64,000 nucleotides of DNA from Parcubacteria group bacterium ADurb.Bin326 (GTDB lineage: Bacteria; Patescibacteriota; Patescibacteriia; 2-01-FULL-39-33). The notes under the pieces were generated by a model. The model did no database searches. It saw only the letters and a program-made list of their open reading frames with translations, and had not been told where the DNA came from. Every line of letters begins with the position of its first letter. The stretch's first letter is position 1. Shown piece after piece: positions 9,481-53,491 of the stretch. Both the position numbers and the translations under genes were made by a program. Location of the stretch: contig MWBE01000017.1 in the NCBI GenBank assembly GCA_002068915.1, positions 3,818 to 67,817 of the forward strand. Direction: 5' to 3'.

Positions 9481-10626
9481 TTATAATTCTTCGTAAAGAG
9501 AAATTATCCGTTTTATTAATTCTGACCAATCATAAAGCGCGGCCGCGCGACCTCTTCCGGCTTGGCCGAAACTATGGCAAAGGTCTTCATCTGACAATAA
9601 TTGAATTAGTTTATCCGACAAATCTCGAGCGTCTTTTGGTCGAACAAGAAGGCCTGTCTGACCATCAGCCAAAGTGCTTCTTACCCCGGGCCAATCAGAA
9701 ACTACTGCCGGCAAACCACAGGCCTGGGCTTCGGCCACTACGATGCCAAAACTTTCCGTACTCTCAGTAGAAGGTAAGACAAAAATATCTGCCAAACGAT
9801 AATAATCAGGCAAGACATCGTTATTAACCCAGCCCACAAAGCTCACTTTACTCTCTAAATTTAGAGATTTCGCTAATTCCTTAAATTTCAACTTGAGATT
9901 ACCATCGCCCACAACAAGCAATTTAGCTTCTGGATGTTTATTAGAGACGGTCGCAAAAGATTCTAATAGAACTGGAACCCCCTTAAAAAAATGTTGATCA
10001 TCCAATCCGCCAACAAAAATTATTATCTTATCATGAACACTAAAATTGTTCACTACTAGTAAGTCTTCTTTTTTGTCGCTGGGACTAAAAAAATCCGCCT
10101 CGATTCCATTGGAAATTTCCAAAAACTTATCCGGTTGTTTTTCGAAAAAATCAGCCAGGTAGGAGCCCTTGCAATGATCAAATGACAATACCCCCACCCT
10201 ATCAGAGACATTAATCATCGCACCGAGAAACAGCTTGATGTGCAACCAAAAAAATATTTTCATTATCCCCTGTCCAATAGGATCCATTTCATAATGCAAT
10301 ACTAGTTTTTTTTGCGGATTAATTTTCTTAAATAACCAAATAATAAAATCGCTGCCAAAAAAAGGATAATAGAGATGGATAATGTCGAATCGCTTCAATT
10401 CTTTTAGAAGACCAAACATAAATCCCGCCTTGCCTAAAGGCAAGACTGTTTTAAGGTAATTAACCGGCAATTCTGAAACTTCTTTCTTTTGTCCATAATC
10501 AGGAGTAAAGGCTTCTGCCGTAACTCCGGATTTAATCAACCATTTGAGATGATAATAAGCGTTATTGCCTATTCCTCCGCCCATGGGCGGCCAAGCGCAA
10601 ACCACTATTGCAACTCTCTTTTCCAT
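9481..10626 (-). CDS. glycosyltransferase family 4
   Basis: 381-aa ORF with a GT4 C-terminal domain (STESFGIVVAEAQACGLPAVVSD). Confidence 0.8.
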   Translation of the reverse strand: MEKRVAIVVCAWPPMGGGIGNNAYYHLKWLIKSGVTAEAFTPDYGQKKEVSELPVNYLKTVLPLGKAGFMFGLLKELKRFDIIHLYYPFFGSDFIIWLFKKINPQKKLVLHYEMDPIGQGIMKIFFWLHIKLFLGAMINVSDRVGVLSFDHCKGSYLADFFEKQPDKFLEISNGIEADFFSPSDKKEDLLVVNNFSVHDKIIIFVGGLDDQHFFKGVPVLLESFATVSNKHPEAKLLVVGDGNLKLKFKELAKSLNLESKVSFVGWVNNDVLPDYYRLADIFVLPSTESTESFGIVVAEAQACGLPAVVSDWPGVRSTLADGQTGLLVRPKDARDLSDKLIQLLSDEDLCHSFGQAGRGRAAALYDWSELIKRIISLYEEL

Positions 10627-13886: not shown

Positions 13887-14366
13887 ATGAGAGCGACTCG
13901 AAACAACTCGGGTGAAGCCAAGGAAGTAAAAGAGGCCAGAAAGCGTCTACACCAGATGCGCGGTACTGGCTTTGTTCTGACCCCAGACGCCGCCAAGCTG
14001 ATTATGACGGCCGGAGGCCCGACCTTTAGAACAGTTAGTGGCGGCTATCGTTGCAACCAGACCGGAGAGAAGGTGGGGCGAGGCAGCACCGAGAACTACC
14101 GCCAACGAGTGTACGGACTGGCGGCTCCGCCCAAGCCGGTCGTAGTCCAAACGAACGCTTCGGCCAGCTCTTCTAGGAGAACGGTCCAATCGCACATTCC
14201 GGAAATTGACATCACCAGCCCTGACGTCTTTATACGTTGTCCAAACCCGCTCTGTGAAGTTGGGATCGGCTATGCCAATCTCATGCTCGAAGGTATCGGG
14301 GTCTGTCCGAGGTGCAACAAGCAGTTTCGAAAAATCCGACACCCGCAATCAGTGAAAAGGACGTAA
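13887..14366 (+). CDS. hypothetical GC-rich protein with a C-terminal Cys4 zinc ribbon (CPNPLC...CPRC)
   Basis: 159-aa ORF with SD AAGGAGG. Visibly higher GC than flanking genes. The in-frame sequence after the TAA stop (14367-14492) encodes a second CPHC...CQFC zinc ribbon. Confidence 0.55.
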   Translation: MRATRNNSGEAKEVKEARKRLHQMRGTGFVLTPDAAKLIMTAGGPTFRTVSGGYRCNQTGEKVGRGSTENYRQRVYGLAAPPKPVVVQTNASASSSRRTVQSHIPEIDITSPDVFIRCPNPLCEVGIGYANLMLEGIGVCPRCNKQFRKIRHPQSVKRT

Positions 14367-14670: not shown

Positions 14671-15218
14671 CACTTATCTCTGACTTTCATCAAAGGGTGG
14701 ACTATATCATTACCTTTTCCAGTCTATTGGATTAAGGTATCAGGCGCTTCGGCCCGCCTTTAACGGCGGAACTACTCCCCAAAGGGATAGTCTCTGAACC
14801 TTCCCCTGAAAGGGGCTTGGCTGCGGATTACCATATCCTTGCGGACTTAGGCTTCCCGCAATTCACCTGATTATCATTCCAAAATTTCTTTCGGAAGCTG
14901 CGTGGAGCCGGAATGTAATTCTCTATGACAATTAGCACATACTAACAAGCATTTATTAATCTCTTGAATGACTTTATCCCAAGATCTTGAAATCCTTTTG
15001 AGGAGACGCCAAAATCTTTTTTATTGCCATCCAAATGATGGAATTCTAATGCTTGCACGCATTTACTGTAGCCACAGATTTCACACTTGCCGCCTTTATA
15101 TTCCAAGGCCTTATCCCTTACGGCTTTACGCCTCTTGGACACTGCCTCAATCAAATATTTACGACGGTCGGCATATTTTCTATTATCTTTAGTCATAACT
15201 TTTGATAACAGACGGTTC
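14671..15218 (-). mobile_element. group I self-splicing intron (~548 nt) in the tRNA-Asn anticodon loop, carrying an HNH endonuclease ORF
   Basis: On the minus strand the classic core elements are read directly: P AATTGCGGGAAG (14852-14863), Q AATCCGCAGCC (14819-14829), R GTTCAGAGACTA (14788-14799), S GATATAGTCC (14699-14708). P3 ATCAGG/CCTGAT. Candidate IGS GCAGC pairs with exon GCUGU with a terminal U-G. Omega-G at 14671. Confidence 0.8.
14942..15196 (-). CDS. intron-encoded HNH-family homing endonuclease (CEICGY ... EFHHLDGNKKD)
   Basis: The ORF track shows 14942..15238, but its first 7 codons lie in the tRNA 5-prime exon. The likely start is the internal Met at 15196 (MTKDNRKY...). C-x2-C plus HH..N HNH motif. 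Confidence 0.55.
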   Translation of the reverse strand: MTKDNRKYADRRKYLIEAVSKRRKAVRDKALEYKGGKCEICGYSKCVQALEFHHLDGNKKDFGVSSKGFQDLGIKSFKRLINAC

Positions 15219-15338
15219 ACAGCCGGTTGCTCTACCATTGAGCTATCGCGGAACTCTAGTGATTTTTATGTACTTTAATGACGTTAAATATCTTAACAAA
15301 TTTTTCTGGCTAAGTCAAGCCAAATTTTCTGTGGAAAA

Positions 15339-35120: not shown

Positions 35121-36128
35121 TTAAATTGAATTCTTATAATATCCCCTATTATTTTCTGGCAACATCTGAGCAATTTGCGTCATTAGCCAATCAGTATTGT
35201 TAAGCTCGCTATTATTCTCATCAAAAGTAACAGCCTCTCCCACCTTCAATATTTTTCCTCGTCCAGATTCTTCAAAAAAAGAGGTTGGCAATATTGGCAA
35301 CTGCTTGCCGGTTAACTTTTCATATTGTGAAGCGACCAATTCCAGTCCTCTATAAGCCTGCTTCATCTCTGGTTTCTCTTGGGTAAGTGACTGGGGTTGC
35401 AGCCACAACCCTTCGGGAAACAAACACATTGCGTCTCCGCGAGACAATACCGCAACTGATTGCCTGACAAAATCCGTATCGACCCGCAGTCCGCCACGAT
35501 CTTCTTGCGCGCTTATTTCTTGAAAAACTTTCTTGCCCACGATACCCTGCCTTTCTTTGGCGGCGTACTTTTCTTCTTTGGATAGATTAGACAAACTTTC
35601 TTGGACAGGAATAGCCTTGATAGCTTTCAAAAAACTTCTAGCAAAAAATGAATTTTTCCACCAAATACTTTTGCCAATGATTGGATGCGGATTAAAATCC
35701 TTAAATGTTTTCAGAAGCGCCTGAACATCGCCATTACCAAAATGATTACAAACAACAACAAAGGGGCCTGACTCTGGAATATTCTCCTTATTCCTTAATT
35801 CAAATCTTACGCTTCCGGACCAAAGATCCAAAAATAAATTAGAAACCAAAGACTTTTCTTTTTTTAAATAATCCGGCAAATAACGGCTTTGATAATCAGA
35901 AATCTTCCGGCTTAATGATTCACCATTTGAGAAATCGGTTGATGGCCCTTGTTTTATTGAATCAATTTTTTTCCTAGTTGCCTCAATCTGTTCGACAACA
36001 TCTTCTGGACTATCAGATTCCAATACTTCCGAAGACTCAATTTGATCTGACTGGTAAGATTCTGTTCCGGATGCGTCCTCTGGACTGATTGGGAACCTTT
36101 CATTACCTTGATTTTTTTCTCCTATCAT
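35121..36128 (-). CDS. lysophospholipid acyltransferase (PlsC/LPLAT family) with an acidic N-terminal extension
   Basis: 335-aa ORF with the H-x4-D motif (VVCNHFGNGDV) and a downstream FPEG motif. Confidence 0.6.
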   Translation of the reverse strand: MIGEKNQGNERFPISPEDASGTESYQSDQIESSEVLESDSPEDVVEQIEATRKKIDSIKQGPSTDFSNGESLSRKISDYQSRYLPDYLKKEKSLVSNLFLDLWSGSVRFELRNKENIPESGPFVVVCNHFGNGDVQALLKTFKDFNPHPIIGKSIWWKNSFFARSFLKAIKAIPVQESLSNLSKEEKYAAKERQGIVGKKVFQEISAQEDRGGLRVDTDFVRQSVAVLSRGDAMCLFPEGLWLQPQSLTQEKPEMKQAYRGLELVASQYEKLTGKQLPILPTSFFEESGRGKILKVGEAVTFDENNSELNNTDWLMTQIAQMLPENNRGYYKNSI

Positions 36129-36256: not shown

Positions 36257-36329
36257 GCGCCTATAGCTCAGTCGGTAGAGCAACAGCCTTTTAAGCTGAT
36301 GGTCCCAGGTTCGAGTCCTGGTGGGCGCA
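36257..36329 (+). tRNA. tRNA-Lys (anticodon UUU)
   Basis: GCGCCTA-TA-GCTC-AGTCGGTA-GAGC-A-ACAGC-CTTTTAA-GCTGA-TGGTC-CCAGG-TTCGAGT-CCTGG-TGGGCGC-A. Canonical cloverleaf, anticodon loop CUUUUAA. Confidence 0.9.
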
Positions 36330-36495
36330 TAAATGAAAAATCCGCTTATGGGCGAATTTTTATGTTGGCCCAATGAATTGTCTATATCATTGACAAAAAT
36401 AGATAATTATGATACTTTAATTTGTTACTAATAAAAATTAGAGCCCCCAGCTGCAAGGGTTATTGTAGTAAACGGCACATTGAAAGGTTAGAAAA

Positions 36496-38058
36496 ATGAA
36501 CATAAGTAGTTTTGTCAAAGAACTGGCAAAGATACTGCCGAAGAATCTACTCAGTATGCAAACGGATGACAGGAGGGCCGTGGCAAGTCGAGTAATATTC
36601 TCCGGAGACTGGGAGAAGCAAGAACAGACAACTCTACTCAGTAACGACCCTGTTGTTATTGATGGGCTGTATGAGAAAAAGAGTCTTCGTTTGTGTGGCC
36701 ACTTCGGGAGAAAAAGAGAGACAACCGAAATTCTCAATTTCATATCCGCTCTCCTCTTCGAGTCCAAGCAGATGATTTTTGGCCCGCTAGACTTCAAGGC
36801 TAAGGTGACGGTTTGGTGGAAAAAAGTAGAAGACTTCTTTCAAGAGACTGACATGGCAGATTTATCCGCCATTAACGTCAAAGCAGTCTTCTACTCCGAA
36901 GATCCTACTAGGCCGAGGTTCGGCCTAACCCAAAAAGAGCACCGTTTTGAAGCCCAGCTCAGCCGTTTGCCGCTTGGAATGAAAAAACTCGTAGTCACTG
37001 CCCAAGGAGATTATGCCCCCATACTTCAGAAGAAGGCTGAGGGCAGTGTGACTATAAGTTTATCGCCGGCTGACACTGAGAGATTGTTGAAGGCCTCTGG
37101 CGGGATGTCACGAAGACTGCTTGAAGCGGCACTGAAGCCGCAAAAAAAGCGAGTCTGCCGGTTCAATTCGGAAAGCGGCATGATGGAAGAGGGCTGGATT
37201 GAAGAAATCACCCTCCTTATATCAGCCTCGAGGCTTCCCTACTACGAAGGGGTCTTGAGACGCAAGCTACCGGTCAATTCCCAGGTCGGCAACAAAAGAA
37301 GCAGCATTGCCAGGATCACCAGAATCTTCTGGCGCACCAGTACTGCGCTGTCGGCAATGAAAGAGCTGATTGGCCAACTTGATTGTTTGGAAACAACAAC
37401 AGTCTTCGACCGGCCAATAATAACTTTGGCCGGGGCCAAAGCCTTCCTCGACCAACTAATGGCGGCAATTGAAGAGACTTGCATCTCCGGTCGCATGTTT
37501 TACGGAGTCGCCAACCGACAACTTAGGCTCTTTGCCCTAAAGCAAGCGGAGGAGCAGTTTGGCAAAGACGTAGTAACCAAACGAGAAGACATGGAAGAGC
37601 GCCAATACGTAGAATTCCTCGAAGAACTGGGGTTTATCAAAGGAGTTCAAGCAGAAGAAGGCTCTCTCGATTTCAATTTTAAAGAGAAAAACCTCTTCTT
37701 GTTTCTGCTACAGTCCTACCGAGCTAATCCCGAAAAGCTTGTCGCCCGATACCGGGAACTCTACGTCAACAAGCCACCAAAGACCCTTATTTGGGGTGAA
37801 GCCGTTCTCGACGCCTCCAAGCTGAAGAGACTACAATTGCCGTCTCAGGCGAAAGTCAGCGGTCTAAGCCTCAGAAAGATTCCAGGAACAGGAGAATCGG
37901 AAGAGTTGATTGTTCAGAATGAATTGCCCTTTAAGGAAAACGATTTTTCCTTTTGGGCAAGAATTCCAATCGAGTCTGAAGGCACCCCGCTCCTGGAACT
38001 GCAGAACTACGCTTGCGAAGCCCTGGGAATCACTGTTGCGAATGCGACTGGCGCCTGA
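36496..38058 (+). CDS. hypothetical protein (520 aa), compositionally distinct from neighbours, immediately downstream of tRNA-Lys
   Basis: Long ORF with moderately elevated GC and no recognised motifs. Candidate promoter TTGACA (36390-36395) with a weak -10. Own terminator downstream. Confidence 0.5.
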   Translation: MNISSFVKELAKILPKNLLSMQTDDRRAVASRVIFSGDWEKQEQTTLLSNDPVVIDGLYEKKSLRLCGHFGRKRETTEILNFISALLFESKQMIFGPLDFKAKVTVWWKKVEDFFQETDMADLSAINVKAVFYSEDPTRPRFGLTQKEHRFEAQLSRLPLGMKKLVVTAQGDYAPILQKKAEGSVTISLSPADTERLLKASGGMSRRLLEAALKPQKKRVCRFNSESGMMEEGWIEEITLLISASRLPYYEGVLRRKLPVNSQVGNKRSSIARITRIFWRTSTALSAMKELIGQLDCLETTTVFDRPIITLAGAKAFLDQLMAAIEETCISGRMFYGVANRQLRLFALKQAEEQFGKDVVTKREDMEERQYVEFLEELGFIKGVQAEEGSLDFNFKEKNLFLFLLQSYRANPEKLVARYRELYVNKPPKTLIWGEAVLDASKLKRLQLPSQAKVSGLSLRKIPGTGESEELIVQNELPFKENDFSFWARIPIESEGTPLLELQNYACEALGITVANATGA

Positions 38059-38083
38059 TTCCTGGCCCACCTTTCCCGCCCAG

Positions 38084-38117
38084 GGGACAACGTTTCGAAC
38101 ACGTTGTCCCTTTTTTT
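38084..38117 (+). terminator. intrinsic terminator (GGGACAACGT-ttcgaac-ACGTTGTCCC + T7)
   Basis: Perfect 10-bp stem followed by a T-run. Confidence 0.7.
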
Positions 38118-38206
38118 ATTGTATAAAATGTTGATAATCTGTTCACAACCGACGGTTTGCCAGAATCGCTACAATCAAGTAAAATACAAGCGTTAAACAA
38201 ACCCTC

Positions 38207-39592
38207 ATGTCAGAGAGCTTTTCCTCCAACAATTTAAAAAAATTGCCACCGCAAAACATCGAAGCCGAGCAATCATTGCTGGGCGCTATTCTGATTGATA
38301 AAGATGCTATCATCAAAATTGCCGACATGATTACTGGCGATGATTTCTATCAAAATGCGCATGGCATTATTTATAACACCATCATTGAACTATTTGAGAA
38401 AAAAGAAGCGATTGACATCTTGTCATTAACTAGCAAATTAGAAGAGCGCGGACAATTAGATTTGATTGGCGGCAGATCTTACCTGGTAACTCTGACCAAT
38501 CAAACGCCATCAGCCGCTCATGTCGCCTCCTACGCTCAGATTATCCAAAAGAAAGCCACTCTCAGACGCCTAATTACCGCGGCCAATAATATTCTAGAAC
38601 TCGGCTATCAAGAAGAGAAGGAAGTTGATGAGGTGCTGGACAAATCAGAGCAATCAGTTTTTGCGGTCTCACAAAAATTTCTCAAAGAAAAATTTACCCC
38701 CATCAAAGAAATTTTAACTGGGGCCTTTGACCGCATCGATGAACTGCATCGTGAAAAAGGAAAATTAAGAGGATTGCCCACTGGATTCTCTGAGTTGGAC
38801 AATCTTTTGGGCGGTTTCCAAAAATCCGATTTGATTATTCTGGCTGCTCGCCCGTCTGTAGGAAAAACTTCTTTCGCGCTGGATATTGCTCGACACGCCG
38901 CAGTCAGATACAAAAAACATATCGGCATATTCTCGCTGGAAATGAGCAAAGACCAGCTGGTTGATCGCTTGATTTCCGCTGAGGCCGGAGTCGACATGTG
39001 GAAAATGCGCACCGGGCGCTTGTCTGAGGCTAGCGAAGACTTCCCGCGCATCGGACACGCTATGAGCGAATTGTCTGAAAGCTCGATTTTCATCGACGAC
39101 TTTGCCAATACCAATATTATGGAACTGCGCACCAAAGCGCGTCGCCTGCAAATGGAGCACGGATTGGACATGATTGTTCTTGATTACCTGCAATTAATGG
39201 AGGGAACATCCGGCAAAGGAGCTTCCAGCGATAATCGCGTCCAAGAAATCGCTCAAATTTCTCGCGCCCTCAAAGGCATTGCCCGCGAACTAAACGTACC
39301 GGTCCTGGCCTTATCTCAATTGGCTCGTGCCGTAGAATTGAACAAGCCAGCCATTCCAAAACTTTCTCATTTGCGCGAATCAGGATCAATTGAACAAGAC
39401 GCCGACGTAGTAATGTTTATTTATCGCAAATCAGCCGACAGAAATTATGACATTAACTCTCTGACAGAAGAAGAAAAGCACGCCGCCGAAATTCACATCG
39501 CCAAACATAGAAATGGACCGACCGGCATGGTCAATCTATATTTTGACGGTAATACGGTAAGCTTCAAAAATTTAGACAAAAGCTATAATTAA
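38207..39592 (+). CDS. dnaB: replicative DNA helicase
   Basis: 461-aa ORF with an N-terminal QNIEAEQSLLGAIL, Walker A ARPSVGKT and RecA-like fold motifs. Confidence 0.95.
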   Translation: MSESFSSNNLKKLPPQNIEAEQSLLGAILIDKDAIIKIADMITGDDFYQNAHGIIYNTIIELFEKKEAIDILSLTSKLEERGQLDLIGGRSYLVTLTNQTPSAAHVASYAQIIQKKATLRRLITAANNILELGYQEEKEVDEVLDKSEQSVFAVSQKFLKEKFTPIKEILTGAFDRIDELHREKGKLRGLPTGFSELDNLLGGFQKSDLIILAARPSVGKTSFALDIARHAAVRYKKHIGIFSLEMSKDQLVDRLISAEAGVDMWKMRTGRLSEASEDFPRIGHAMSELSESSIFIDDFANTNIMELRTKARRLQMEHGLDMIVLDYLQLMEGTSGKGASSDNRVQEIAQISRALKGIARELNVPVLALSQLARAVELNKPAIPKLSHLRESGSIEQDADVVMFIYRKSADRNYDINSLTEEEKHAAEIHIAKHRNGPTGMVNLYFDGNTVSFKNLDKSYN

Positions 39593-39604
39593 TAATCATA
39601 AGAT

Positions 39605-39898
39605 ATGTTTAACAAAATTAAAGCCATTCAAGAATTAAAAACTCAAGCCAATCAGATCAAAAAAGTTTTAGCTGAAGAAAAAATCGAGGGGTCGGGAAAT
39701 TGGGGCAAGATCAAAATCACTATGGACGGCAACCAAGAAGTTTTATCAGTAGAGATTGCCGACGAAATTATTGGCGATAAATCTAAGCTTGAATCAGGAA
39801 TCAAAGAAGCGGTCAATGACACCATCAAAAAAGCACAGCGAGTCATGGCGCAGAAAATGTCACAAATGGGAGGTATTGATTTGCCGGGACTAAAATAA
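39605..39898 (+). CDS. ybaB: nucleoid-associated protein YbaB/EbfC family
   Basis: 97-aa ORF in a typical size and position after a replication gene; coiled-coil-like YbaB pattern. Confidence 0.8.
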   Translation: MFNKIKAIQELKTQANQIKKVLAEEKIEGSGNWGKIKITMDGNQEVLSVEIADEIIGDKSKLESGIKEAVNDTIKKAQRVMAQKMSQMGGIDLPGLK

Positions 39899-39948
39899 AC
39901 TCAACAAAAAATACTCCGCCAAAAGCGGAGTATTTTTTGTTGGAAAAA

Positions 39949-40728
39949 TTAACAATTACTAACCTCTATATATTCGTTATTGAGTATTTTTTTAAATTTA
40001 TCTAAGGCCTCCTGCTCATCCCTGACTTGCACGAAAGGGACTTCTTTGGCTATTTCCCAATCATTACCGCCTTCAAAGCACTTGTCGCCAAAAAATAAAA
40101 CCTCCCTGTTATTAACCCTGAAATACTCTTTGATCTTCAACAAGCCAAAACCTTTATCCATGCCCTTATAAGTAAAATCAATTGATGTCGTCCCTCCGAC
40201 GCGCACCTCAAAATCCGAAACCAACCGAGGATTTTTTGCCTTCATATAGTCCACAAAAACCTTGCGCTTATCACCGCTAGGATCGTATGAGGCTTTCAAT
40301 TCATAAGGAGCGCTTCTGCCCAAAATAGAGAAGGTTATCTGGCTATCGCGCAATTCTATCTGATCATCGGTAAAAGGAACTAGGTTAAATCTGTTGATGC
40401 AACTAATAATGGAATTAAGAATTATATTTTGATCGTCAGTACGCATCTTATTCTCATAAACCATCTCGTATTTGCCGTTTGAAAAAATCCAAAATTGATT
40501 GCCAGAAGTTGGAAATAAATAAAGTATCGTCTTGGTATCCTTAATCAAAGAAGTTATCTGATCCTGAATCAAACTCAACTTTCCGCCAGTGATTATCACA
40601 AAAGAATAATTTTTTGCCATTGACTCTATGGCTGAAATCATCTCCGGCTCGGCCGGCTGACGCGATTTAGCCAGAGTGCCATCCATGTCGCAAACTATTA
40701 TTCTGCTATTTTGCGCTACTGAAATCAT
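39949..40728 (-). CDS. HAD-superfamily (IIB-like) hydrolase
   Basis: 259-aa ORF with an N-terminal DMDGTLA motif (HAD motif I). Confidence 0.6.
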   Translation of the reverse strand: MISVAQNSRIIVCDMDGTLAKSRQPAEPEMISAIESMAKNYSFVIITGGKLSLIQDQITSLIKDTKTILYLFPTSGNQFWIFSNGKYEMVYENKMRTDDQNIILNSIISCINRFNLVPFTDDQIELRDSQITFSILGRSAPYELKASYDPSGDKRKVFVDYMKAKNPRLVSDFEVRVGGTTSIDFTYKGMDKGFGLLKIKEYFRVNNREVLFFGDKCFEGGNDWEIAKEVPFVQVRDEQEALDKFKKILNNEYIEVSNC

Positions 40729-40736
40729 AATCTTTC

Positions 40737-51988: not shown

Positions 51989-53491
51989 ATGAAGAAACTT
52001 AGTGTTGTATTGATGATGGTTTTTGTGGTTTTCGGCTGCCTGGTGCTTACCGGCTGTAACAAGCCTGGCGACAACAACGGCGAGAACCCGCCGGCCGTGG
52101 TCAACCCTGAAGGCGAAACGCCCGAGGGCGAAGACGGGCCGACGATCCGCCCGGTTGTGGAAGGTGAACCTGAGACCCCTGCGGTCGAGGGTGAACCGGA
52201 AGTGCCTGCCGAGGGCGAGCCCGAAGTGCCGACGGAACAGTCCGGCAGTATCGTTATCACCGGAGTCCTTTTCAAGGGACTGCCGGCAACCAAGGCGCTG
52301 AGCGCGGACGAGAACGGACTGACAGCTGAAGAGCTGAGTCAGGCGTTCCTCGAAATCGCTGCGGCGACCGATGGACTGGAGTTGGTGCTTGACGGTGACG
52401 GCGAGAATGATTACAAACGCTCCTGCACTGTGCAGAGCGACGGGTCATTCTTCTTGCGCCTGGCAAGTGTTCTGCCCGGCGATTACAAGCTGGAGCTGAA
52501 CACCATGTCCAGCACCACCGGCATCAACGGCTGGGGCAAATCCGAAGTCGATGTGAAAATCGAAGCCGGCAAGGTCACCCAGGTGACCGTCGCCCTCGAG
52601 CGGATGGAAACGTTCGCAATCCTCGGATACTTCAGCGATGAACTCGCGGAAGATGAGGATTGGGGTTCGTTTGAAGCCTTCCTAGTCGACACCGCGGGAA
52701 ACAATTATACCGCGGTCCTCGCCAAAAACGATGCCGACGAATGGGTGATCAACGGGTACAACCTGCCTGTCTCGGCCATCATTGGGGCCTTGAAGATCAC
52801 GGGCGACGACATCGAAACCATGATGTTCGCCGTCGACACGACGAGCACGGCTTTCGAGAACGGCTACTCGTTATTCGACGTGATCGACAACGAAGCCATG
52901 CTCGCCCTCGTATCCGACACTGGAGACCTTGAAGTCACCGTCCCCCCGATTGATCTGGGTGAAGGTGAAGACGAAGAGGGCGAAGTTGAGAGTGAGGACG
53001 AAACCGAAGGCGAAGGCGAAACTGAAGGCGAAGGAGAAGTTGAAGATGATAACTCCCTTCCCCTGGTCGCCGGCAAAGCGACGGTCGGGCTGATCATCGA
53101 AACCGATGGCTCAGTGACGATGCTCGCCGACGCCAACGAGGGCTTCAGCCTGCCCCTGTCCTTCTACGGCCTCCCCGCTTCGATTGCCTCGCTCGGCGTC
53201 GAGGTTTACTACCTGGATGACGCCCACGACCCCGACGGTGCTTGGGAAGATCGCCAAGTCGTGGCTTGCTCCGGACTGCCGTTCGAGGCAACCGTGAACA
53301 TCTTCGATTCCCCGGTCTGGCGTTTCCAAGTGGTTGCCAACTCCGTGGACATGTGGGCCGGAAACTATGCCAACTCCGTGAAGTTCCATGTCGTGGTCAA
53401 GTACCGCGATGCTGAGAATTGGACAACACTGAGTCAGTCCGATGACGGCAGTGGCAACATGGCGTACCAGGTCGATACCCGGACGCTGTAA
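51989..53491 (+). CDS. GC-rich acidic lipoprotein (500 aa; lipobox LVLTGC; Glu/Pro-rich linker repeats; Asp/Glu-rich segments)
   Basis: [19 protein letters not shown]. Signal peptide plus Cys lipobox. Composition strongly GC-rich compared with neighbours. No catalytic motif recognised. Confidence 0.55.
   Translation: MKKLSVVLMMVFVVFGCLVLTGCNKPGDNNGENPPAVVNPEGETPEGEDGPTIRPVVEGEPETPAVEGEPEVPAEGEPEVPTEQSGSIVITGVLFKGLPATKALSADENGLTAEELSQAFLEIAAATDGLELVLDGDGENDYKRSCTVQSDGSFFLRLASVLPGDYKLELNTMSSTTGINGWGKSEVDVKIEAGKVTQVTVALERMETFAILGYFSDELAEDEDWGSFEAFLVDTAGNNYTAVLAKNDADEWVINGYNLPVSAIIGALKITGDDIETMMFAVDTTSTAFENGYSLFDVIDNEAMLALVSDTGDLEVTVPPIDLGEGEDEEGEVESEDETEGEGETEGEGEVEDDNSLPLVAGKATVGLIIETDGSVTMLADANEGFSLPLSFYGLPASIASLGVEVYYLDDAHDPDGAWEDRQVVACSGLPFEATVNIFDSPVWRFQVVANSVDMWAGNYANSVKFHVVVKYRDAENWTTLSQSDDGSGNMAYQVDTRTL

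Follow-up and report, generated by a model that had tools for sequence, protein, structure and literature searches.

The window analysed here, 64,000 nt of contig MWBE01000017.1 of Parcubacteria group bacterium ADurb.Bin326 (candidate phyla radiation (CPR)/Patescibacteria), carries a gene for a 520-amino-acid protein between tRNA-Lys(UUU) and dnaB. This gene, designated ORF520 after its open reading frame (ORF; 36496–38058, plus strand), was probably gained in the ADurb.Bin326 lineage after the split from its sister species, as a self-contained single-gene cassette. The insert spans 1.75 kb (approximately 36364–38112, plus strand), comprises one gene with its own promoter-like sites, Shine–Dalgarno sequence and terminator, and is missing from the corresponding loci of close relatives. 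CPR genomes are small and poor in mobile elements, and gene loss is regarded as their main mode of change. The locus appears as a cleanly bracketed single-gene gain without a recombinase, filled in two strains and empty in the sister species and an outgroup. Together with two further single-gene indels within 6 kb, it offers a concrete example of gene acquisition in CPR genomes.

The direction of the change is read from close relatives recovered through their DnaB proteins. In the sister species (locus L102), DnaB is 96% identical at the amino acid level, and nucleotide identity to the window is 85–89%. In the outgroup (loci L104 and L105), DnaB is 92% identical, and nucleotide identity is 77–79% both to the window and to L102. 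These nucleotide identities give the topology ((window, L102), L104). All three loci hold the gene order of the window across >20 kb (TGT-CLIPPER-DUF4012-GT4-GT4-GT4-tRNA-Lys-dnaB-ybaB-Mur ligase-PBP), minus ORF520. In L102 and L104, tRNA-Lys is followed by its terminator hairpin and then, ~120 nt on, by the start codon of dnaB. Homology between the window and the empty sites stops at 36361 and restarts at 38111 (blastn breakpoint windows, equivalent to L102 positions 9911 and 9907), and the insert 36364–38112 is found in contigs of a 98.5%-identical strain (L001–L008). An earlier sequence-only reading of this DNA had proposed a search for an empty tRNA-Lys/dnaB junction in relatives, with the caveat that the gene might instead prove native and conserved among them; the empty junction is present in L102, L104 and L105, and the gene is missing in all three. 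Beyond these loci, a DnaB search of GTDB retrieved relatives only at ≤66% identity, with poor synteny.

On the topology ((window, L102), L104), parsimony favours a single gain in the lineage of the window over two losses that would have to be both precise and identical. The converse history, in which an ancestral gene at this position was independently and precisely lost in the L102 and L104 lineages, is improbable. Such losses would suit the reductive pressure on CPR genomes and the parallel divergence of the gene and dnaB between the two strains, and the short direct repeats (TTTTTAT and ATGTTG) on either side of the segment could serve for precise deletion. However, two deletions with identical end points would be needed, and the empty sites of L102 and L104 are mutually collinear. 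Neither a relic of the gene nor a member of its family was found at the L102, L104 and L105 loci, and in 80 other Patescibacteria no family member comes closer than 10 kb to dnaB. In the more distant L015 and L025, tRNA-Lys likewise adjoins dnaB. Finally, the GC content of ORF520 lies 7 points above that of its genome, which also counts against an ancestral gene.

ORF520 is a genuine gene that encodes a protein and evolves under purifying selection. Its start lies 166 nt past the end of tRNA-Lys, in agreement with the ~165 nt and the 520 amino acids of the sequence-only reading. A Shine–Dalgarno-like GAAAGG (36482–36487) lies upstream, and the start codon matches the N-terminus of the protein family described below. 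The 98.5%-identical strain allele is found in the same context on eight metagenomic contigs (L001–L008). The window differs from this allele (L001/L002) by 14 synonymous and 9 non-synonymous changes, corresponding to a ratio of non-synonymous to synonymous divergence (pN/pS) of 0.19; the excess of synonymous change is significant (binomial p 9e-5). The pS values of ORF520 (0.040) and dnaB (0.045) are similar, indicating that the two genes co-diverged. That ORF520 is open by chance or is a pseudogene in decay, as might be imagined for an ORF with neither annotation nor a curated family, can practically be dismissed in view of this constraint, of full-length homologues with E-values down to 1e-41, of a confident AlphaFold2 model and of the presence of a Shine–Dalgarno sequence, start codon and terminator. 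Six of the eight strain contigs (L002–L007) all begin at window position 36274–36275, at the same base inside tRNA-Lys. This shared break most likely reflects a branch in the assembly graph, the tRNA sequence being common to other community members, and not structural variation.

The composition of the gene departs from that of its surroundings to a limited extent. GC content is 0.488 and GC at third codon positions (GC3) 0.543, against 0.423 and 0.430 on average over the window's 45 large ORFs; the corresponding z-scores are 1.6 and 1.7. The earlier observation that GC exceeds that of the flanking acyltransferase and dnaB genes is correct (0.395 and 0.443), yet the z-score is only 1.6. In codon-usage distance, ORF520 ranks fourth among 44 genes. 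The difference between its GC and that of its genome (+0.071) is the top positive offset among 11 family loci; thus, high GC is not a property of the family.

Several points weigh against this account of the gene. The polarity of the gain rests on two relatives only, and the repeat of 7 nt on both flanks might, in principle, allow precise deletion to recur. No donor came to light, and the closest of the other homologues shares just ~30% identity. The compositional deviation is modest, with two ORFs of the window (13887–14366 and 51989–53491) deviating more; in addition, the native dnaB on the same strand is almost equally deviant in codon usage, so that part of the codon signal is a plus-strand effect. 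Lastly, the lack of a structural relative of the product holds for PDB and BFVD only.

Both junctions carry short repeats. At the left junction (36357–36367, plus strand), where homology to the empty sites ends, TTTTTAT (36357–36363) overlaps ATGTTG (36362–36367). At the right junction (38113–38133, plus strand), where this homology resumes, TTTTTAT (38113–38119) and ATGTTG (38128–38133) are present again. The empty sites contain a single copy of the corresponding sequence, T6-A(A/T)...(A/G)TGTTG. A T-run/ATGTTG microrepeat as the sole repeat, single in the empty site, points to microhomology-type recombination. The 7-nt TTTTTAT at both ends of the insert is ambiguous as a target-site duplication, since it is also the T-run of a terminator. 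Marks of insertion sequences, transposons or miniature inverted-repeat transposable elements were not found, neither as a transposase (Pfam) nor as terminal inverted repeats at 36364/38112. The cassette lies in the short gap that separates the tRNA-Lys(UUU) terminator from the dnaB promoter, where it presumably entered one of the few neutral slots of a compact genome by illegitimate, microhomology-type recombination or with a short target duplication.

The insertion point is located 32 nt past tRNA-Lys, downstream of its terminator hairpin, and therefore not in the tRNA 3′ end; the insertion is not the product of a tRNA-targeting integrase. Thus, the earlier proposal of an islet at the tRNA-Lys 3′ end survives in part: the gene is probably inserted, as the empty sites indicate, but not as a classical tRNA-targeted islet. 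As first noticed from the sequence, no integrase or recombinase is encoded in the insert, where the single ORF has no Pfam, NCBIfam or PHROG match and is flanked by genes for an acyltransferase and DnaB. The partial tRNA-Lys 3′ repeat suggested as an attachment (att) site did not materialize: a second copy of the 22-nt tRNA-Lys 3′ end is absent from the 64 kb at ≤3 mismatches, and a repeat search likewise yielded none.

Comparison with tRNA-associated tyrosine-integrase islands reveals a partial likeness. Shared features are the adjacent same-strand tRNA, presence/absence among relatives, a GC deviation and cargo of unknown function; the first three would also be expected from the remnant of a classical island at the tRNA-Lys 3′ end that has since lost its integrase and att site. 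Such islands differ from the present locus, which has neither an integrase nor a tRNA-derived att repeat and contains one gene in 1.75 kb. The remnant scenario is very unlikely, because insertion took place beyond an intact tRNA terminator, because the right junction restores the original spacer exactly and leaves no space for decayed island DNA, and because the two other single-gene indels nearby do not lie beside a tRNA end. Another comparison is with moron-type cassettes, autonomous promoter-gene-terminator units between two genes that are described for lambdoid prophages. They resemble the gained cassette as self-contained transcription units in a spacer, with a distinct composition and with the signals of the neighbouring genes intact. 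In contrast, there is no prophage here and no phage genes nearby, and the family was not found in IMG/VR, INPHARED and BFVD.

The signals of the insert and those of the native neighbours can be told apart. A consensus scan suggests putative promoter sequences within the insert (36378–36418, plus strand), namely TTGTCT-18-GATAAT and an additional TTGACA at 36390–36395. Downstream of ORF520, an intrinsic terminator (38082–38117, plus strand) consists of a perfect 10-bp stem (GGGACAACGT/ACGTTGTCCC at 38084–38093/38101–38110), a 7-nt loop and a T7 run, with an energy of −17.9 kcal/mol (z −4.4); the perfect stem reported from the sequence at the end of the ORF is found as described, at 38084–38110. 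Upstream, the native tRNA-Lys(UUU) (36257–36329, plus strand; ARAGORN, Rfam 73 bits) has the same sequence in strain L001 and is found in all relatives, with orthologues at 9806–9879 in L102 and 9817–9889 in L104. Its own terminator, a hairpin followed by a T5 run (36336–36361, plus strand), is native as well and aligns with the hairpins of L102 and L104. The energy of this hairpin is −6.6 kcal/mol in the window, −13.0 in L102, −15.2 in L104 and −15.8 in strain L001. The weakening in the window is due to one stem mismatch restricted to this strain, the hairpin of L001, which also carries the insert, being intact. Read-through from tRNA-Lys into the inserted gene is conceivable given the weak hairpin; as a general feature, read-through from the tRNA promoter is rejected, since the weakened hairpin is strain-specific.

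On the other side of the insert, the native dnaB (38207–39592, plus strand; Pfam) is followed by ybaB (39605–39898, plus strand). DnaB of the window and DnaB of Parcubacteria group bacterium ADurb.Bin326 show 100% identity. The promoter-like site of dnaB, TTGCCA-17-TAAAAT (38157–38185, plus strand; consensus scan and alignment), is native, conserved in L102 and L104 and untouched by the insertion. A functional link of ORF520 to dnaB, for instance as a helicase loader, is rejected on account of the strong terminator and the conserved dnaB promoter between the two genes, and also because no other family member lies near dnaB. The first description of ORF520 as a plus-strand gene amid minus-strand neighbours is accurate for the ORF itself and only partly so for its surroundings, since tRNA-Lys, dnaB and ybaB are on the plus strand too.

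The product of ORF520 (59 kDa, pI 8.8) is supported by the ORF call, a family match and an AlphaFold2 model, and shows no evident signal peptide or transmembrane segment. Sequence comparisons place it, as a divergent member, in a rare and unannotated family whose proteins are soluble, have four domains and measure ~500 amino acids; it is not an orphan. The family emerged in an exhaustive HMMER scan (phmmer) of 1.84 billion cluster representatives at E ≤ 1e-3, whereas word-indexed homology searches with the single sequence and the family profile returned only the 98% strain variant. It comprises 46 cluster representatives, nearly all of 490–550 amino acids, that align over their full length at 22–31% identity. 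Matches of the window protein to the 45 other representatives have E-values from 1e-41 to 1e-4 and cover mostly residues ~60–513. The family hidden Markov model scores the window ORF at 424 bits, the lowest value among the members found.

Conservation within the family is sparse. An alignment of 43 sequences contains a single invariant column, L400; Q503, identical in all 42 sequences that cover its column, is the sole invariant polar residue. Near-invariant positions are W108, D193, A314, L375, G379, P412 and G511, and in the predicted model S190-x-x-D193 is placed at the start of a helix and may resemble a capping box. Of the members, 70% retain H149 and 74% retain C507, the two residues being replaced in 25–30%. 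From the signature residues of the family (P36, W108, D193, A314, L375, G379, L400, P412, Q503 and G511), the window protein retains nine out of ten. Its departures from the consensus at about nine positions (P36S, G255R, K256R, D287A, E321L, Y329C, H399N, N469E and P495E) characterize it as a divergent member.

Known families offer no counterpart among the databases searched. For the window protein there is no Pfam, NCBIfam, PHROG, PADLOC or PDB sequence match, in keeping with the absence of a recognizable motif in the sequence-only reading. When all 43 members were scanned with Pfam, NCBIfam and PADLOC, only single-member chance matches appeared (e.g. LigT_PEase 6.5e-4, Sigma70_r3 8.5e-4 and Cas9 5.8e-4), with no database family matching more than one member. 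The best match of the family profile to PDB sequences has an E-value of 0.13, and self-comparison by HHalign disclosed no internal repeats. At the structural level, the AlphaFold2 model built from the family alignment is confident (pLDDT 89.2, pTM 0.87) and is composed of three alpha/beta regions and a helical region at ~311–421. A Foldseek search of this model against PDB and BFVD found nothing at E ≤ 0.001, the best BFVD match having an E-value of 1.5e-3 and a TM-score of 0.08. Hence, the check by AlphaFold and Foldseek that had been recommended at the outset produced a confident model and no housekeeping fold in these two databases.

As to function, the likeliest reading, still tentative, is a non-enzymatic accessory protein for binding or scaffolding and not a conserved enzyme, favoured because few polar residues are conserved. 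It is improbable that one domain is a papain-like hydrolase of the UCH/Josephin type or that the protein acts as a cytoplasmic enzyme in the pathway for surface glycans often encoded nearby. A papain-fold set of catalytic Cys, His and Asp/Asn was not found, with no invariant Cys or His in the family, and C507 is predicted to lie inside helix 498–509, whereas the papain-fold Cys is expected at the N-terminus of the helix. In this respect, the family differs from papain-fold deubiquitinases (Josephin, UCH and viral tegument-like enzymes), with which three quarters of the ORF520 protein remain unmatched and to which Foldseek lends no support. As for the pathway, genes of glycan biosynthesis are located near the family gene at L092, L093/L094, L098 and in the window, but such proximity is probably uninformative because glycan genes are so frequent in CPR genomes.

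A stand-alone conflict gene, acting in phage defence or in host/symbiont interaction, is also rather unlikely, even though several traits would fit. The family is rare, patchy and fast-evolving (25–30% identity between members), and crosses domains; its genes are monocistronic and occur in shifting contexts, with GC mismatches to the flanks in both directions in several hosts; and the gain in the window is recent. However, no family-level PADLOC match is seen in the 43 members scanned, with none for the window protein and six different single-member matches at E 6e-4 to 0.03. No effector domain, transmembrane segment or signal peptide is recognizable, and the neighbours are not defence genes.

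Across genomes, members of the family are single, mostly stand-alone genes with neighbours that vary from locus to locus, such as an HTH/LysE/LD-carboxypeptidase group at L090, GTPase, PPIase and SHMT genes at L099, and transporters at L097. The idea of a conserved operon is rejected, since common neighbours were seen at L089 and L093 only, two loci that are close relatives. Members come from metagenomes such as those of 0.1-µm-filter groundwater. Some contigs are bacterial, as indicated by ribosomal protein L7/L12 at L090 and a sigma-70 factor at L093. Others have an archaeal label: member P0019 (MCK4808031.1) and two cluster mates are assigned to Aenigmarchaeota by NCBI. On its contig, JAGLUQ010000003.1 of an Aenigmarchaeota metagenome-assembled genome, P0019 (L101, 10001–11557) lies between Cbf5/Trm112 and S13/S4/S11, downstream of S4e, L32e, L19e, L18, L30, L15, SecY and L34e. 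This contig is unmistakably archaeal; therefore, the family spans CPR bacteria as well as DPANN archaea, the latter in at least one lineage. The GC of this archaeal member is 0.08 below that of its flanks, and the gene looks like an insertion there too.

Across hosts, the difference between gene GC and flank GC ranges from −0.08 to +0.07, the archaeal value being biased by its ribosomal-protein flanks. Offsets in both directions fit repeated transfer. Viral or plasmid homologues were not confirmed in an IMG/VR scan, and tblastn against INPHARED and PLSDB gave no match; a search with a sub-alignment turned up none in IMG/VR and at least one locus among the JGI metagenomes. CPR bacteria and DPANN archaea are two radiations of ultra-small episymbionts. 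A more speculative reading, unlikely on present indications, is a multi-domain fold family not described before, passed horizontally between CPR and DPANN and with a function tied to the episymbiont lifestyle that both share. If so, the window captures a datable single-gene acquisition with the filled and the empty sites preserved.

Many such hypothetical families exist. Lineage-specific ones in CPR bacteria and DPANN archaea are treated by Castelle et al. (2021; PMC8204110; Meheust et al. 2019 cited therein), according to whom only a few DPANN families of unknown function have been detected in bacteria. The ORF520 family resembles these lineage-specific families in being unannotated and, within the sampling available, confined to symbiotic prokaryotes of ultra-small size. 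It differs in being shared across both domains and in its rarity (46 clusters), and does not belong to a lineage-defining core. Being rare, uncurated, devoid of a relative in PDB or BFVD and present in a DPANN contig, while shared families are reportedly few (PMC8204110), it makes a reasonable but unexceptional subject for structural and functional studies of how ultra-small symbionts exchange genes between domains.

ORF520 is one of three single-gene segments specific to the window lineage. Upstream of tRNA-Lys, segment 35083–36210 contains a gene for a PlsC-type acyltransferase (35121–36128, minus strand) where L102 and L104 have ~53 nt. The GC of this gene (0.395) is host-typical, and the left junction of the segment follows a GGCAT-AATA-ATGCC hairpin and a T-rich run. 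The other segment, 39939–40735, is absent in L102 and L104; it harbours a PMM/HAD-like gene (39949–40728, minus strand) between the ybaB terminator and the Mur ligase gene. Its left junction, T6-GTTGG, resembles the T5-AT-GTTGG at the left junction of ORF520, a likeness that may be due to chance or may hint at a common insertion mechanism. Both segments are located ≤6 kb from ORF520, and each of the three lies beside a hairpin and a T-run. Collectively, these segments suggest that genes turn over one by one at the few neutral intergenic sites that a compact genome offers.

The interval between tRNA-Lys(UUU) and dnaB is occupied elsewhere by other DNA. At L012 (4725–10001), in a relative with 66% DnaB identity, 5 kb of unrelated genes separate the two and encode a 163-amino-acid protein, a surface-like protein of 811 amino acids, a 206-amino-acid protein and a DnaQ-like exonuclease. 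Judging from this example, gene turnover may recur between tRNA-Lys and dnaB.

Two further features of the window lie outside this locus. A full-length group I catalytic intron (14678–14954, minus strand; RF00028, 101 bits) occurs in a window devoid of rRNA. It sits in a 1.6-kb gap between ORFs, next to the high-GC region 13887–14366 (GC 0.554), and its 5′ end is overlapped by an ORF of 98 amino acids (14942–15238) with an HNH-like C..C...HH motif. The strongest compositional outlier is a 500-amino-acid ORF at 51989–53491 (plus strand), with GC 0.583, GC3 0.713 (z ~4) and a codon-usage distance of 0.63. Divergently oriented from the gene for ribosomal protein L10 (51018–51521), without a Pfam match and unrelated to the ORF520 family, this ORF ranks above ORF520 as a candidate for foreign DNA.

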